Source: a virus
Reading direction: 5' to 3' (one strand)
DNA: 26,449 nucleotides
UHGV virus genome: UHGV-1509762
Shown: positions 1 to 14,532 of the stretch, in pieces
Position numbering within the stretch: position 1 is the stretch's first letter
How the letters are laid out: every line of letters starts with the position of its first letter
The notes under the pieces: model-generated
What the model saw: only the letters and a program-made list of their open reading frames with translations
The model's database searches: none
Told to the model about the DNA's origin: nothing
Translations under genes and position numbers: made by a program

Positions 1-40
1 TAAACCCTGTTTTCCTTGCCATAGACACCATCCCTGTCTT

Positions 41-67
41 CCCCCACATGATGTGGGGTTTTTTTTT
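41..67 (+). terminator. Rho-independent terminator-like hairpin (CCCCACAT/ATGTGGGG stem followed by a 9-T run)
   Basis: Seen directly: 8-bp GC-rich inverted repeat at 42-49/51-58 followed by TTTTTTTTT at 59-67. It lies beyond the 3' end of int, near the expected prophage/host junction. Confidence 0.5.
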
Positions 68-152
68 ATCAATCACTTACATCGGTTTCCGTAAGAAAAC
101 AGTAACTTAAGAAAACCTATAAGGGACTGGAAGGGCTACAAAGTTCTGAGAG

Positions 153-173
153 TGTGGACACTATGTGGACACT
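153..173. repeat. Tandem direct repeat TGTGGACACT x2 with 11-bp periodicity; candidate integrase arm-type binding sites
   Basis: Seen directly: TGTGGACACT at 153-162 and again at 164-173, immediately downstream of the int stop codon (186-188). Placement and helical-turn spacing are typical of arm-type Int sites in att regions; the functional call is inference. Confidence 0.45.
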
Positions 174-185
174 CAGAAGGGAAAT

Positions 186-1166
186 TTATAACGTCACTCC
201 GCCTTTTAGAGGATTCAGTGCGACGGCATTTTGCAGGTAGTCAGGCGCAAGGTGCGCATAGGCCATCGTCTGCTGAATGCTCGCATGTCCCAGAATCTGT
301 TGCAGTGCGATTATATTGCCCCCATTCATCATGAAATGGCTTGCGAATGTATGCCGCAGGATGTGGGTTGCCTGATTGGGTGGTATATCTGGCTTCACTC
401 TGCGTAAAATCCCGCAAAACTTCTCATAATCAACTTTGAATAATTTAGCGCTGGCCTCCTCTTTAACTTTTTTCTCCAGTTCCTCAGAAATCGGCACGGT
501 TCGCTTTTTACCGTTTTTGGTTTTCAGGAAGGTAACCCTGCAATTTGTAATCTGTGCTGGTTTTAGCGTGGCAACTTCCGTCCATCTTCCTCCAGTGCTC
601 AGACATAAAAGTGCGACAAGTAAGTCATCACCATCCAAAACATTTAACAGTTTTTCGATTTCTGCTTTTTCCAGGAACGTCATTTCAGGGTTGGCCTCCG
701 CCAGTGGCGGCAGTCCGTGAATTGGGTGTTGCCCGGAAAATTCATCCAATTGAATTAATTTTGTGAACATGCCGGATAATCGGTACATGTCACGGTTTAT
801 CGTTGCGGCACTGATACCATCACGTAGTCGCATGGAACGATAATCCATCAAAGCTCTTTTGCTCATCCGGCTCACTGGTATATCACCTATGCCGCTGATG
901 GTTTTGAGCAGATGATTAAACTCTTTTGTTCCATGCTCGTGGTTTTGCCCGTGATATTTCCACCAGATGTCCAGCAACTCACTCAAAGTTCTGCGATCTG
1001 CTCGCTGACCTGCCCATTCTTTCTGGCTGGCGTAGGCGATTGTGTATCGCTCAAATGCTACAGCCTCAGCTTTTCTTTCAAATTTCCTGCGGATGCGTTT
1101 TCCGTCGCGACCGCGAGGTCTAATGTCCACTTCATAGCGTCCATCATCGAGCTTCTTAATTGACAT
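186..1166 (-). CDS. int: Tyrosine site-specific integrase (P2 Int-like)
   Basis: 336-aa track ORF with tyrosine-recombinase C-terminal signature (HILRHTFASH ... LGHASIQQTMAYAHL: HxxR box and nucleophile Tyr). Start placed at the internal Met (MSIKKLDDGRYEVDIRP, as I recall the P2 Int N-terminus) because an AGAGGG ribosome-binding site sits 8 nt upstream of the ATG at 1166. Confidence 0.93.
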   Translation of the reverse strand: MSIKKLDDGRYEVDIRPRGRDGKRIRRKFERKAEAVAFERYTIAYASQKEWAGQRADRRTLSELLDIWWKYHGQNHEHGTKEFNHLLKTISGIGDIPVSRMSKRALMDYRSMRLRDGISAATINRDMYRLSGMFTKLIQLDEFSGQHPIHGLPPLAEANPEMTFLEKAEIEKLLNVLDGDDLLVALLCLSTGGRWTEVATLKPAQITNCRVTFLKTKNGKKRTVPISEELEKKVKEEASAKLFKVDYEKFCGILRRVKPDIPPNQATHILRHTFASHFMMNGGNIIALQQILGHASIQQTMAYAHLAPDYLQNAVALNPLKGGVTL

Positions 1167-1235
1167 AAGAAAGCCCTCTGACGCTGTATTCACCATCTTG
1201 GTAACAAATAGTGAAAATGTAATGTTTATAGAGTG

Positions 1236-1529
1236 TTAACCAGTCTGTTTTTCGGAGTGGTCTGATTCTGTTGGTTTTTGCCCAATGTGTGCGAGAGCCG
1301 GCGCGATCTGACCAGCTTGTGGTGACGTATCACCAGTCATTAACCAGAGCGTATATTTTTTAAATAAAGGCGTATTTGTGACTCGCATAACGATGCTGAG
1401 ACCAGGGTCTTTATGCCCACTTTCGTAATTTTTGACTGTTCCTAGAGCTATCCCGCTAATTTCGCTGAATTTCGCCTGTGTTAAGCCTTCTGCTTTCCTA
1501 ATCGCTTTCAGTTTTTCGAATGTCTGCAT
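1236..1529 (-). CDS. C: Immunity repressor (P2 C-like, helix-turn-helix)
   Basis: 97 aa with HTH segment LTQAKFSEISGIALGTVKNYESG and C-terminal SGQIAPALAH motif. Sits between int and the divergently transcribed cox, as in P2. Confidence 0.85.
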   Translation of the reverse strand: MQTFEKLKAIRKAEGLTQAKFSEISGIALGTVKNYESGHKDPGLSIVMRVTNTPLFKKYTLWLMTGDTSPQAGQIAPALAHIGQKPTESDHSEKQTG

Positions 1530-1558
1530 TTGACAGTAACCTATTGGTGACTTATATT
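1530..1558 (+). promoter_or_regulatory. Early rightward promoter (Pe-like): TTGACA, 17-bp spacer, TATATT
   Basis: Seen directly: TTGACA at 1530-1535, 17-bp spacer, TATATT at 1553-1558. It abuts the start codon of the divergent repressor gene and points toward cox (ATG at 1682). Confidence 0.6.
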
Positions 1559-1585
1559 CCCGTCAAAAGGTTGTGTATTGGTGAC
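1542..1585. promoter_or_regulatory. Direct repeats TATTGGTGAC x2 flanking the -10 element; candidate repressor operator half-sites
   Basis: Seen directly: TATTGGTGAC at 1542-1551 (inside the promoter spacer) and at 1576-1585 (just downstream of the -10). P2-type C repressors bind direct repeats flanking the -10 of Pe (established knowledge); assigning these repeats to that role is inference. Confidence 0.45.
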
Positions 1586-1601
1586 CTTTTGAGTGTGTTA
1601 G

Positions 1602-1642
1602 CCAGTCCCTAGAAAGGACAGGGGCGACCTAGAAGGGACTGG
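1602..1642. promoter_or_regulatory. Dyad CCAGTCCCT ... AGGGACTGG in the C/cox switch region; candidate Cox or regulator binding site
   Basis: Seen directly: CCAGTCCCT at 1602-1610 and its reverse complement AGGGACTGG at 1634-1642. The same 9-mer also occurs at 122-130 near the att end. Confidence 0.4.
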
Positions 1643-1681
1643 ATCTAATAAGGGTAACACGAAAGCAAAAAGGGCTAATCA

Positions 1682-1954
1682 ATGGAAGTCAATGACTATG
1701 TGATTCAGTACCCGATTGATGCGGTACATACGGTTAAGTTTGCAGAGTTACTTGGTAAGCCAGAAACGGCTGTAGTCAAGATGGTAAAAGAGAATAAATT
1801 GCCAGTTATTGAGCTTCGTGATCCAAGTAAGCCGAACGCCCGTGTCGGTGAGAAGTGGGTTTTCATTCCAGAGTTTAATCGCGCTGTACGAGAGGCGTTT
1901 TATAACCGACCAGTTGAACAGCGTGATGCATGGCTTTTGTGGATGGGGTTGTGA
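1682..1954 (+). CDS. cox: Cox-like excisionase / early-promoter repressor
   Basis: 90-aa ORF, first gene of the rightward early operon, divergent from C; size and position as in P2 (Cox is 91 aa). The segment KENKLPVIELRDPSK...GEKWVFIPEFN resembles the P2 Cox core as I recall it. Confidence 0.8.
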   Translation: MEVNDYVIQYPIDAVHTVKFAELLGKPETAVVKMVKENKLPVIELRDPSKPNARVGEKWVFIPEFNRAVREAFYNRPVEQRDAWLLWMGL

Positions 1955-3710: not shown

Positions 3711-5973
3711 AGCCTCCGGGCGTTTTGTCCCTCCGTCAGCATTTGCCGCAGGCACCGGTAAGACGTTTACCGGTGCTTATGCATGGAACGCGCCACGCGA
3801 GGCCGTCGGGCGCGAAAGACCCCTTACACGTGACGAGATGCGTCAGGTGCAAGGTGTTTTATCCACGATTAACCGCCTGCCTTACTTTTTGCGTTCGCTG
3901 TTTACTTCACGCTATGACTACATCCGGCGCAATAAAAGCCCGGTGCACGGGTTTTATTTCCTCACATCCACTTTTCAGCGTCGTTTATGGCCGCGCATTG
4001 AGCGCGTGAATCAGCGCCATGAAATGAACACCGACGCGTCGTTGCTGTTTCTGGCAGAGCGTGACCACTATGCGCGCCTGCCTGGAATGAATGACAAGGA
4101 GCTGAAAAAGTTTGCCGCCCGTATCTCATCGCAGCTTTTCATGATGTATGAGGAACTCTGCGATGCATGGGTTGATGCGCATGGTGAAAAAGAATCGCTG
4201 TTTACGGATGAGGCGCAGGCTCACCTGTATGGTCATGTTGCTGGCGCTGCACGTGCTTTCAATATTTCCCCGCTCTACTGGAAAAAATACAGTAAAGGAC
4301 AGATGACCACGAGGCAGGCATATTCTGCCATTGCCCGTCTGTTTAACGATGAGTGGTGGATTAGTCAGCTTAAAGGCCAGCGTATGCGCTGGCATGAGGC
4401 GTTACTGATTGCTGTCGGGGAGGTCAATAAAGACCGTTCTCCTTATGCCAGTAAACATGCCATTCGTGATGTGCGTGCGCGCCGCCAGGCAAATCTGGAA
4501 TTTCTTAAATCGTGTGACCTTGAAAACAGGGAAACCGGCGAGCGCATCGACCTTATCAGTAAGGTGATGGGCAGTATTTCTAATCCAGAAATTCGCCGGA
4601 TGGAGCTGATGAACACCATTGCCGGTATTGAGCGTTACGCCGCCGCAGAGGGTGATTTGGGGATGTTTATCACGCTGACCGCGCCGTCAAAGTATCACCC
4701 GACACGTCAGGTCGGAAAAGGCGAAAGTAAAACCGTTCAGCTTAATCACGGCTGGAACGATGAGGCATTTAATCCAAAGGATGCGCAGCGTTATCTCTGC
4801 CGTATCTGGAGCCTGATGCGCACGGCATTCAAGGATAATGATTTACAGGTCTACGGTTTGCGTGTCGTCGAGCCACACCACGACGGAACGCCGCACTGGC
4901 ATATGATGCTTTTTTGTCATCCACGCCAGCGTAACCAGATTATCGAAATCATGCGTCGCTATGCGCTCAAAGAGGATGGCGACGAAAGAGGAGCCGCGCG
5001 AAACCGTTTTCAGGAAAAACACCTTAACCGGGGCGGTGCTGCGGGGTATATCGCGAAATACATCTCAAAAAATATCGACGGCTATGCACTGGATGGGCAG
5101 CTCGATAACGATACCGGCAGACCGCTGAAAGATACTGCCGCGGCTGTTACCGCATGGGCGTCAACGTGGCGCATTCCGCAATTTAAAACGGTTGGCCTGC
5201 CGACAATGGGGGCTTACCGTGAACTACGCAAATTGCCTCGCGGCGTCAGCATTGCTGATGAGTTTGACGAGCGCGTCGAGGCTGCACGCGCCGCCGCAGA
5301 CAGTGGTGATTTTGCGCTGTATATCAGCGCGCAGGGTGGGGCAAATGTCCCGCGCGATTGCCAGACTGTCAGGGTTGCCCGTAGCCCGTCGGATGACGTT
5401 AACGAGTACGAGGAAGAAGTCGAGAGAGTGGTCGGCATTTACGCGCCGCATCTCGGCGCGCGTCATATTCATATCACCAGAACGACGGACTGGCGCATTG
5501 TTCCGAAAGTGCCGGTCGTTGAGCCTTTGACTTTAAAAAGCGGCATCGCCGCGCCTCGGAGTCCTGTCAATAACTGTGGAAAACTCACCGGTGGTGATAC
5601 TTCGTTACCGGCTCCCACACCTTCTGAGCACGCCGCAGCAGTGCTTAATCTGGTTGATGACAGTGTTATCGAATGGAGTGACCCGGAGGTCGTGAGGGCG
5701 CTCAGAGGTGCATTAAAACACGGTCGGAGAACGCCAAATCGTCAGCAAAGAAACGGAAGCTCGTTAAAACCACATGAAATTGCACCATCGGCCAGACTGG
5801 CCCGGTCGGAACGAATGCAAATTACCCGTATCCGCGTTGACCTTGCTCAGAACGGTATCAGGCCGCAGCGATGGGAGCTTGAGGCGCTGGCGCGTGGCGC
5901 GACCGTAAATTATGATGGGAAAACGTTTTCATATCCGATTTCTGATGGTTGGGCGGGATTTGAAACAAACTAA
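3700..5973 (+). CDS. A: Rolling-circle replication initiator endonuclease (P2 gpA-like, HUH superfamily)
   Basis: About 760 aa; HUH motif (PHWHMMLF, DNA about 4897-4920) and two-tyrosine active-site motif (GYIAKYISK, DNA about 5044-5070). Start set at the ATG at 3700 (MDVKASGRF, like the P2 A N-terminus as I recall); the track's start at 3658 is a TTG. Confidence 0.92.
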   Translation: MDVKASGRFVPPSAFAAGTGKTFTGAYAWNAPREAVGRERPLTRDEMRQVQGVLSTINRLPYFLRSLFTSRYDYIRRNKSPVHGFYFLTSTFQRRLWPRIERVNQRHEMNTDASLLFLAERDHYARLPGMNDKELKKFAARISSQLFMMYEELCDAWVDAHGEKESLFTDEAQAHLYGHVAGAARAFNISPLYWKKYSKGQMTTRQAYSAIARLFNDEWWISQLKGQRMRWHEALLIAVGEVNKDRSPYASKHAIRDVRARRQANLEFLKSCDLENRETGERIDLISKVMGSISNPEIRRMELMNTIAGIERYAAAEGDLGMFITLTAPSKYHPTRQVGKGESKTVQLNHGWNDEAFNPKDAQRYLCRIWSLMRTAFKDNDLQVYGLRVVEPHHDGTPHWHMMLFCHPRQRNQIIEIMRRYALKEDGDERGAARNRFQEKHLNRGGAAGYIAKYISKNIDGYALDGQLDNDTGRPLKDTAAAVTAWASTWRIPQFKTVGLPTMGAYRELRKLPRGVSIADEFDERVEAARAAADSGDFALYISAQGGANVPRDCQTVRVARSPSDDVNEYEEEVERVVGIYAPHLGARHIHITRTTDWRIVPKVPVVEPLTLKSGIAAPRSPVNNCGKLTGGDTSLPAPTPSEHAAAVLNLVDDSVIEWSDPEVVRALRGALKHGRRTPNRQQRNGSSLKPHEIAPSARLARSERMQITRIRVDLAQNGIRPQRWELEALARGATVNYDGKTFSYPISDGWAGFETN

Positions 5974-13458: not shown

Positions 13459-14532
13459 ATGCGCCAGGAAACCCGCTTTAAATTTAATGCCTACCTGTCC
13501 CGTGTTGCCGAACTGAACGGCATCGACGCCGGTGATGTGTCGAAAAAATTCACCGTTGAACCGTCGGTCACCCAGACCCTGATGAACACCATGCAGGAGT
13601 CCTCTGATTTTCTGACCCGCATCAACATTGTGCCGGTCAGCGAAATGAAAGGGGAAAAAATTGGTATCGGTGTCACCGGCTCCATCGCCAGCACCACCGA
13701 CACCGCCGGTGGCACCGAGCGTCAGCCGAAGGACTTCTCGAAGCTGGCGTCTAACAAGTACGAATGCGACCAGATTAACTTCGATTTTTATATCCGCTAC
13801 AAAACGCTGGACCTGTGGGCGCGTTATCAGGATTTCCAGCTCCGTGTCCGTAACGCCATTATCAAACGCCAGTCCCTTGATTTCATCATGGCCGGTTTTA
13901 ACGGCGTGAGGCGTGCCGAAACCTCTGACCGCAGCAGCAATCCGATGCTGCAGGATGTGGCGGTCGGCTGGCTGCAGAAATACCGCAATGAAGCCCCGGC
14001 GCGCGTGATGAGCAAGGTCACTGACGAGGAAGGTCACACCACCTCTGAGGTCATCCGCGTGGGTAAAGGCGGTGATTATGCCAGCCTCGATGCACTGGTG
14101 ATGGATGCGACCAACAACCTGATTGAGCCGTGGTATCAGGAAGACCCTGACCTTGTGGTGATTGTGGGGCGTCAGTTACTGGCGGACAAGTATTTCCCCA
14201 TCGTCAACAAGGAGCAGGACAACAGCGAAATGCTGGCCGCTGACGTCATCATCAGCCAGAAACGCATCGGTAACCTACCAGCGGTACGCGTCCCGTACTT
14301 CCCGGCGGATGCGATGCTCATCACGAAGCTGGAAAACCTGTCCATCTACTACATGGATGACAGCCATCGCCGCGTGATTGAGGAAAACCCGAAACTCGAC
14401 CGCGTGGAGAACTACGAGTCAATGAACATTGATTACGTGGTGGAAGACTACGCCGCCGGTTGTCTGGTGGAAAAAATTAAGGTCGGTGATTTCTCCACAC
14501 CGGCTAAGGCGACCGCAGAGCCGGGAGCGTAA
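13459..14532 (+). CDS. N: Major capsid protein (P2 gpN-like)
   Basis: 357 aa, same length as P2 N; N-terminus MRQETRFKFNAYLSRVAELNG recognisable. Confidence 0.93.
   Translation: MRQETRFKFNAYLSRVAELNGIDAGDVSKKFTVEPSVTQTLMNTMQESSDFLTRINIVPVSEMKGEKIGIGVTGSIASTTDTAGGTERQPKDFSKLASNKYECDQINFDFYIRYKTLDLWARYQDFQLRVRNAIIKRQSLDFIMAGFNGVRRAETSDRSSNPMLQDVAVGWLQKYRNEAPARVMSKVTDEEGHTTSEVIRVGKGGDYASLDALVMDATNNLIEPWYQEDPDLVVIVGRQLLADKYFPIVNKEQDNSEMLAADVIISQKRIGNLPAVRVPYFPADAMLITKLENLSIYYMDDSHRRVIEENPKLDRVENYESMNIDYVVEDYAAGCLVEKIKVGDFSTPAKATAEPGA

Follow-up and report, generated by a model that had tools for sequence, protein, structure and literature searches.

A repeated 9-mer in the switch and attachment arm of a WΦ prophage is probably the core of a Cox recognition box

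The 9-mer AGGGACTGG, which recurs near the attachment end and in the genetic switch of the 26,449-nt stretch of DNA analysed here (the window), is probably the core of AAGGGACTGG, the strongest recognition box of the phage WΦ Cox protein, a box that would serve both the switch and excision. In the model that we propose, Cox, a small winged-helix protein, would be both the repressor of the lytic switch and the directionality factor of excision. Binding in the two regions would have different consequences: i) in the switch, Cox protomers would line up head to tail on three phased boxes (b1 to b3, 1613-1642), bend the DNA and spread over the lysogenic promoter Pc, and this spreading would shut off the genes C and int; and ii) in the att arm, Cox bound to two boxes (a1 and a2, 121-140) would bend the arm, so that Int would assemble the excisive and not the integrative complex. 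A reverse-facing box (box 0, 1602-1611) would let the Cox complex grow from the switch array towards the early promoter Pe, leading to autoregulation. The evidence presented here comprises the identity of the phage, the positions and apparent phasing of the boxes, a 17-nt match between the two regions and the similarity of att arm and switch across relatives; from it we infer the contacted bases and the role of the inverted box, and the spreading is proposed by analogy with P2 Cox.

Judged by sequence comparison, the window is a prophage and essentially phage WΦ. Bases 24-2400 share 99.5% identity with coliphage WΦ (AY135739, AJ245959), and many WΦ-type prophages of Escherichia, Salmonella and Yersinia match the same segment likewise. 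The host flank comprises bases 1-23, identity to the free phage DNA begins at base 24, and bases 1-70 are found in all complete E. coli genomes searched (5426 of 5426). The att core side of the prophage junction therefore occupies positions 24-70 of the plus strand, the right-hand limit being approximate, and a hairpin followed by a T-run (42-58) lies inside it. The gene order is att junction, int (minus strand), C (minus strand), cox (plus strand), orf78 and B. The open reading frame of int (186-1196, with its stop at 186) encodes a tyrosine integrase with the Pfam domains Int_N and Phage_integrase, and that of C (1236-1529), the gene so named in AJ245959, encodes the immunity repressor, with an HTH_3 domain. 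The protein proposed to bind the boxes is the product of cox (1682-1954), which matches the Pfam family PF10743 (Phage_Cox) with 83.5 bits against a cut-off of 27.5 and is homologous to P2 Cox (PDB 4LHF, E = 2.5e-20). A gene of the Cox family thus adjoins the switch, as expected of dual-function sites of the Cox/Apl type.

The two promoters of the switch face each other. Pe (1528-1564, plus strand) consists of TTGACA, 17 nt and TATATT (1530-1558), with a transcript start near 1564; Pc (1646-1682, minus strand) starts near 1645-1646 and is transcribed leftwards through the boxes. Both are promoter features of AJ245959, and this annotation agrees with a promoter scan of the window. The convergent transcripts are reported to overlap by 82 nt, with the Pc start 60 nt from O2 (PMC1904263), and the promoter positions in the window fit that overlap. 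A repeat search on the plus strand also recovered the C operator half-sites O1 (1542-1551) and O2 (1576-1585), two copies of TATTGGTGAC placed 34 bp apart (1542-1585 in all), the sequence and 34-nt spacing being those given in PMC1904263.

An earlier note on this DNA had placed the 9-mer at 122-130 (plus strand), 1602-1610 (minus strand) and 1634-1642 (plus strand), and the whole-window count reproduced these positions exactly. It also had the surroundings right: the first copy lies between the hairpin with its T-run and the int stop, and the second and third form a dyad between Pe and the start of cox at 1682, which is a perfect 9-bp inverted repeat with 23 nt between the arms. These three copies all fall within two short non-coding stretches. 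The claim that the motif occurs at exactly two places did not survive, because the count revealed a fourth exact copy at 13869-13877 (minus strand), inside the major capsid gene N. A role of this copy as a distal Cox site was considered and ruled out: phage P2, with different Cox boxes, carries the identical 9-mer at the corresponding site of its own gene N, so the copy is coding sequence, not a site, and is not part of the system described here.

Could the recurrence of the 9-mer be a matter of chance? For this particular word, the argument against chance holds: the count across the prophage that had been suggested as a check finds enrichment, with four matches in the window against 0.09 expected from shuffles of it. 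The argument weakens when every word is allowed to compete, since about 8% of the dinucleotide shuffles of bases 1-1700 (238 of 3000) held some 9-mer at least three times, counted on both strands and without overlap, and the gene N copy is clearly coincidental. The stronger signal is the match between att and switch that goes beyond the 9-mer alone. The att copy extends to ACCTATAAGGGACTGGA (115-131), which agrees with ACCTAGAAGGGACTGGA (1627-1643) at 16 of 17 positions, and a pair like this arose in only 4 of 1000 shuffles (0.4%). The confinement of the three copies to two short regulatory spacers also speaks against chance, as do the position of one copy within the switch and the fate of the equivalent elements in relatives, to which we return below; we consider a chance origin of the recurrence extremely improbable. 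An apparent enrichment of the pentamer AAGGG, with 6 of its 18 plus-strand copies in the window lying within 337 non-coding bases, was given no weight, because it was noticed post hoc and two of the copies fall on the -10 of Pc and on the ribosome-binding site of cox. A full-text literature search with the motif sequences returned unrelated primers only.

What is already published on WΦ Cox bears directly on the switch copies. PMC5009727 states that the protein represses Pc and promotes excision in vitro, that its target in the Pe-Pc region is a direct repeat of 12 nt and that it does not use the cox-boxes of P2. The Pe-Pc spacer of the window holds only two families of direct repeats, namely the C operators TATTGGTGAC at a distance of 34 bp and CCTAGAAAGGACAGG / CCTAGAAGGGACTGG at a distance of 20 bp. 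Because the only other family in the spacer is that of the C operators, CCTAGAAAGGACAGG / CCTAGAAGGGACTGG must be the Cox repeat, and the published 12-nt repeat, as far as the letters of the spacer tell, can only be CCTAGAA(A/G)GGAC at 1608 and 1628, the sole candidate. The third copy of the 9-mer overlaps the right copy of this repeat by 6 nt, an overlap that a chance recurrence would leave as a further coincidence. The P2-type cox-box TTAAASNCM was found neither in the att arm nor in the switch, and none of its 7 matches in the window lies below base 4370; this absence agrees with what PMC5009727 says about WΦ Cox.

Read in steps of 10 bp, the plus strand of the switch resolves into an array AAAGGACAGG, GGCGACCTAG, AAGGGACTGG, preceded by one inverted box and followed, 3-4 nt beyond, by the Pc start. 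Box b1 (AAAGGACAGG, 1613-1622) falls within the left copy of the 12-nt repeat (CCTAGAAAGGAC, 1608-1619). Box b2 (GGCGACCTAG, 1623-1632) is a degenerate in-phase unit, placed by the phasing and by the three tandem units of relatives. Box b3 (AAGGGACTGG, 1633-1642), with the third copy of the 9-mer, is the right arm of the dyad and shares bases with the right copy of the 12-nt repeat (CCTAGAAGGGAC, 1628-1639). The left arm is box 0 (1602-1611), which reads TAGGGACTGG on the minus strand and holds the second copy of the 9-mer; in relatives it keeps its place and stays complementary to the right arm, with covariation between the two. The units thus start at 121 and 131 in the att arm and at 1613 and 1633 in the switch, with the degenerate one at 1623, so that 4-5 units, one of them poor, are recognisable in WΦ. 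Because the middle box is degenerate, the good switch boxes stand 20 bp apart and not 10, which counts against a phased array.

The working unit is nevertheless best read as a helically phased, mostly direct array of boxes and not as a dyad operator, so the dyad, which the earlier note had taken as the recognition unit, has to give way: most of the boxes are direct and can be read in 10-bp phase, and the inverted left copy (1602-1610) is, as far as discernible, not part of the published direct repeat. A precedent for an inverted box exists, since a single P2 target holds boxes of both orientations (PMC3936717). The more general proposal, a bifunctional regulator of the Cox type acting at both regions, stands as regards the protein and the two regions, given the Phage_Cox product, the published action on Pc and att and the similarity of arm and switch; the part that falls is the dyad.

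The att arm contains several further elements around the first copy of the 9-mer, all on the plus strand. The consensus for integration host factor (IHF) is WATCAANNNNTTR, and TATCAATCACTTA (67-79), read from the sequence, matches it and is a candidate IHF site, conserved in the arms of all relatives; it belongs to the context of the motif and not to the motif itself. The same applies to an exact 9-bp direct repeat found by the repeat search, TAAGAAAAC (92-100 and 108-116, spanning 92-116), which is unlikely to set the specificity of Cox because relatives keep a similar A-rich module whatever their type of box. Box a1 (AAGGGACTGG, 121-130) holds the first copy of the 9-mer and is part of the 17-nt match at 115-131, and box a2 (AAGGGCTACA, 131-140) follows 10 bp after it. 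Another 13 nt downstream, the repeat search detected TGTGGACACT twice, 11 bp apart (153-173), which we assign to Int arm-type sites of the P' arm; the consensus of P2-type Int arm sites is tgTGGaCa (PMC3448106). Boxes a1 and a2 are therefore flanked by the att core on one side and by the Int arm sites on the other, a position equivalent to that of the Cox-binding region annotated in the P2 record, which separates the attP core from the P' arm. In the P arm of free WΦ, no such Cox box was found. PMC11963761 reports that WΦ Cox forms complexes on att DNA. Related sites thus stand both in the att arm and in the spacer that the two facing promoters enclose, the places where a dual-function protein would need them. 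The primary paper on WΦ Cox is reported to describe a 9-bp attP repeat that has only 5 bp in common with the switch repeat. This repeat fits TAAGAAAAC (92-116) better than AAGGGACTGG, which counts against our assignment of the boxes; the functional Cox site of the WΦ att arm may be AAGGGACTGG followed by AAGGGCTACA, and not the A-rich 9-bp repeat.

How general is this arrangement? A search with Cox retrieved about 200 loci, with 59-100% protein identity. Those that carry a P2-type C repressor keep the layout of the switch, an inverted arm and then 2-3 tandem 10-bp units, which end on TGG followed by ATC just before the Pc -10; three clear tandem units occur in relatives, for example AACGTTTTCA, AACGGTTTAG and AAAGGGCTGG. 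In 19 non-redundant loci the att arm is also present, with two-box modules homologous to a1 and a2 (for example, AACCGTCTGG followed by AACCGTTTCA), and the similarity between arm and switch runs collinearly over 22-24 nt (for example, GGAACCAGCCTGGGCCGTTTCAAA versus GGAAGCATCCTGAGCCGTTTTAAA). Equivalent elements have thus been kept at both places, which is not what a chance recurrence would predict. When the best local score between arm and switch was averaged over 11 diverged lineages, it was 10.2 when both came from the same phage, 8.0 when they came from different phages and 6.4 in the reverse-complement control. A permutation test of own against other pairs gave p = 0.004 for these 11 lineages, which are not independent, and the similarity is that of two boxes, collinear and in the same orientation. 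The WΦ pair is the most lineage-specific, with a score of 15 versus 5-9. These comparisons suggest that the sites in both regions change together with the lineage of the protein, a result that is supportive rather than conclusive because of the non-independence of the lineages. The WΦ clade alone has a lysine at Cox residue 33 and it alone has the box core GGGAC/GGAC. This lysine aligns with R30 of P2 Cox, a residue located in the DNA-facing helix (PMC3936717), and residue 33 may therefore track the change of the box, though a single clade makes this suggestive only.

The inverted copy in the switch could also act as RNA. In this alternative, the dyad would fold, roughly 4 nt after the start of the Pc (C-int) transcript and also in the Pe leader, into a stem-loop that would stabilise the mRNA or limit the pairing of the convergent overlapping transcripts; the att copy would be a Cox box in its own right, and the dyad's right arm would have a double use. 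The minus-strand RNA starting at 1646 is indeed predicted to leave 4 nt unpaired before a 9-bp stem, with a folding energy of -20.5 kcal/mol and a hairpin z-score of -3.4 (-2.8 for the whole 127-nt Pc leader). With the start taken from the literature, the stem therefore lies within a few nt of the Pc 5' end and is stabler than expected by chance. The inverted repeat is retained at its position in 28-60 non-redundant relatives, in versions such as CCAGTCC/GGACTGG, CCAGCCC/GGGCTGG, CCAACC/GGTTGG and CCAGCG/CGCTGG, with double changes at three positions of the stem (GC to AU, CG to UA and CG to GC). On constructs aligned in a fixed register, the covariation score exceeded that of all 500 shuffles and 73% of the cells paired, against 25-46% with slid partners; the set of 60 sequences gives a like picture. 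The spacing between the arms varies by 20-32 nt, which would be awkward for a rigid dimer, and the Pe transcript starts with a second conserved and covarying inverted repeat, around O2 (1563-1571/1584-1592).

Several observations weigh against the RNA. The conserved core of the stem is only 6 bp, positions 7-9 being mostly unpaired outside the WΦ clade, and the G-U wobbles within this core favour no strand, 7 of them fitting the plus and 3 the minus strand. RNAalifold found no structure in a plain MAFFT alignment of the switch, a null result that reflects misregistered arms and for which the fixed-register constructs were substituted; these in turn favour pairing, because their register is anchored on the invariant CCA/TGG. 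No Rfam family matched in the switch. Covariation between the arms is equally expected from two copies of the box of one protein. When read by eye and not by script, the left arm resembles the right box to about the same degree as the att box does, so that one protein explains all three copies. A previous impression that the arms of the dyad track each other better than they track the att box was withdrawn, as identity is similar, about 7.5-8 of 10, in this reading by eye. With a core of 6 bp only, wobbles that favour no strand and a left arm no closer to the right box than the att box is, a reverse-facing Cox box would therefore account for everything with one protein. That the dyad acts as an RNA element appears to us unlikely, and the same doubt applies to a conserved 5'-terminal stem-loop on the C-int mRNA, matched by one that the repeat around O2 would form on the Pe mRNA.

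A further possibility is that the dyad serves a different dimer as operator, for instance a host factor or the C repressor at a secondary site, with no link to Cox. A perfect 9-bp inverted repeat whose arms lie about three helical turns apart, centre to centre, would suit such a dimer, and phage flanking DNA was associated with an extra C-DNA complex and with about 100-fold lower expression of a Pe reporter (PMC1904263). However, the same study judged secondary C sites 'very unlikely' (PMC1904263), and an operator of this kind leaves the copy of the att arm, with its 16 of 17 matching positions, unexplained. Moreover, the sequences of the arms change with the Cox lineage and no other candidate protein is encoded nearby. 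We therefore regard such an operator as highly unlikely, and retain the array of Cox boxes as the preferred reading.

This array resembles several known systems. The closest is the WΦ Cox operator itself (Ahlgren-Berg et al. 2009, Virology 385:303, as presented in PMC5009727), described for the same phage and the same spacer; the unit given there is the 12-nt direct repeat, against which the 10-bp boxes proposed here are shifted by 5 nt. The cox-boxes of P2, TTAAA(G/C)NC(A/C), are found at Pc, attP and the P4 promoter P_LL (PMC3936717), and WΦ Cox is homologous to the protein that binds them. In both phages, one target is the switch and the other separates the att core from the P' arm. As proposed for the WΦ array, the P2 boxes stand 10-11 bp apart and in both orientations, and P2 Cox binds cooperatively, bends DNA and forms a DNA-wrapping filament nucleated by the boxes (PMC3936717), a behaviour to which we liken that of WΦ Cox. 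In contrast, the sequence of the box is entirely different, evident boxes number two in the att arm and 3-4 in the switch of WΦ versus six or more in P2, and the WΦ boxes come after the Pc start, whereas those of P2 cover the -10 and -35. In phage 186, Apl has sites at pR-pL and att (PMC7498355) and, like WΦ Cox, is a single protein that serves as excisionase and switch regulator. Its sites are tandem direct repeats one helical turn apart, located between face-to-face promoters and at att, and its highly cooperative binding with low sequence discrimination is another likeness; the differences are that Apl is a sequence outlier, that there are seven operators and that the switch is of the CI/CII type. 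Finally, the X1-X1.5-X2 sites of lambda Xis are bound head to tail by winged-helix protomers, are phased and include a weak middle site comparable to b2. Lambda Xis bends the att arm to favour excision, as proposed here for WΦ Cox, but it is not known to take part in the lambda switch or to have promoter sites.

What does this add to the biology of P2-like phages? WΦ is a model member of the group, and the action of its Cox on both switch and att, the way in which P2-like phages couple derepression to excision, was already known. The finding mostly rediscovers a known regulatory design already published for WΦ. To that design it adds a specific 10-bp box and a phased layout proposed for both targets, the observation that diverged relatives keep lineage-specific versions at both places and the suggestion that a residue of Cox tracks the change of the box. 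What is left as new is the definition of the att-arm box, together with the possible RNA structures at the 5' termini of the two transcripts. If these structures were real, both convergent transcripts of the P2-type switch would start with selected RNA structures, acting in stability or in sense-antisense pairing, and a layer of RNA would be added to a switch that has so far been described by proteins and promoter interference alone.

Around O2 (1576-1585), the second half-site of the C repressor operator, lies a perfect 9-bp inverted repeat, TCAAAAGGT / ACCTTTTGA (window 1563-1592), which begins at the transcript start of the early promoter Pe. The repeat is conserved in relatives, where it carries compensatory changes and is 82% paired; its covariation score was reached by none of 500 shuffles. 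Once transcribed, TCAAAAGGT and ACCTTTTGA would fold into a hairpin at the very 5′ end of the early mRNA, with O2 placed in the loop. A reporter driven by Pe has been found to be expressed about 100-fold less with the natural WΦ Pe-Pc flanks than with vector flanks, a drop for which the authors give no explanation (PMC1904263). These natural flanks contain the dyad, the 3′ arm of the O2 hairpin and the lysogenic promoter Pc.

A different palindrome, TCAGGA-N4-TCCTGA, is located between the dyad arms in non-WΦ relatives (loci L002, L006, L007, L067 and L070 and their relatives) and is absent from the WΦ switch. It sits some 25 nt ahead of the TGG|ATC anchor that ends the switch units; its centre is variable and one outer pair is compensatory (T-A versus C-G). 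The TGG|ATC sequence itself is retained in nearly all relatives, and in the window a GATC (Dam) site occupies 1643-1646, at the Pc transcript start and immediately after the right dyad arm. Beyond it, in window 1650-1679, the plus strand carries two more AAGGG cores, AAGGGTAACA at 1650, overlapping the Pc -10, and AAGGGCTAAT at 1670, overlapping the cox ribosome-binding site and the Pc -35. These cores may represent additional, weak Cox boxes or no more than promoter and Shine-Dalgarno sequence.

At the other end of the int gene, the att arm contains a candidate IHF site, TATCAATCACTTA (window 67-79; consensus WATCAANNNNTTR), which is kept in the att arms of every relative examined. This candidate is located between the core and int; in P2, by contrast, the annotated IHF site is on the opposite side of the core. 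The arm also has an exact 9-bp direct repeat, TAAGAAAAC (92-100 and 108-116), and a similar A-rich module is retained in relatives whatever their type of Cox box. The abstract of a 2009 paper on WΦ Cox reportedly mentions a ‘9-bp repeat in attP’, which may be this same repeat (92-116). The distance of the arm from cox is not constant: in several relatives (L003, L038, L048-L052, L057, L059 and L076) the start of cox is preceded by the arm at about 2.1 kb rather than about 1.5 kb, which means that roughly 0.55 kb of additional DNA must separate the Int arm sites from the int stop.

The att core and its hairpin are spanned by a minus-strand match (window 1-66) to Hfq-regulated sRNA 1, Hrs1 (Rfam RF02628; E = 1.2e-7), whose 48.1 bits, for a match truncated by the start of the window, fall below the gathering score of 56.4. 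Each of the 5426 complete E. coli genomes contains the first 70 bases of the window, which carry no annotation there. Taken together, these sequence matches suggest that the WΦ-type attachment site may overlap a small-RNA locus, a situation resembling that of P2, whose core is similar to the 3′ end of cyaR.
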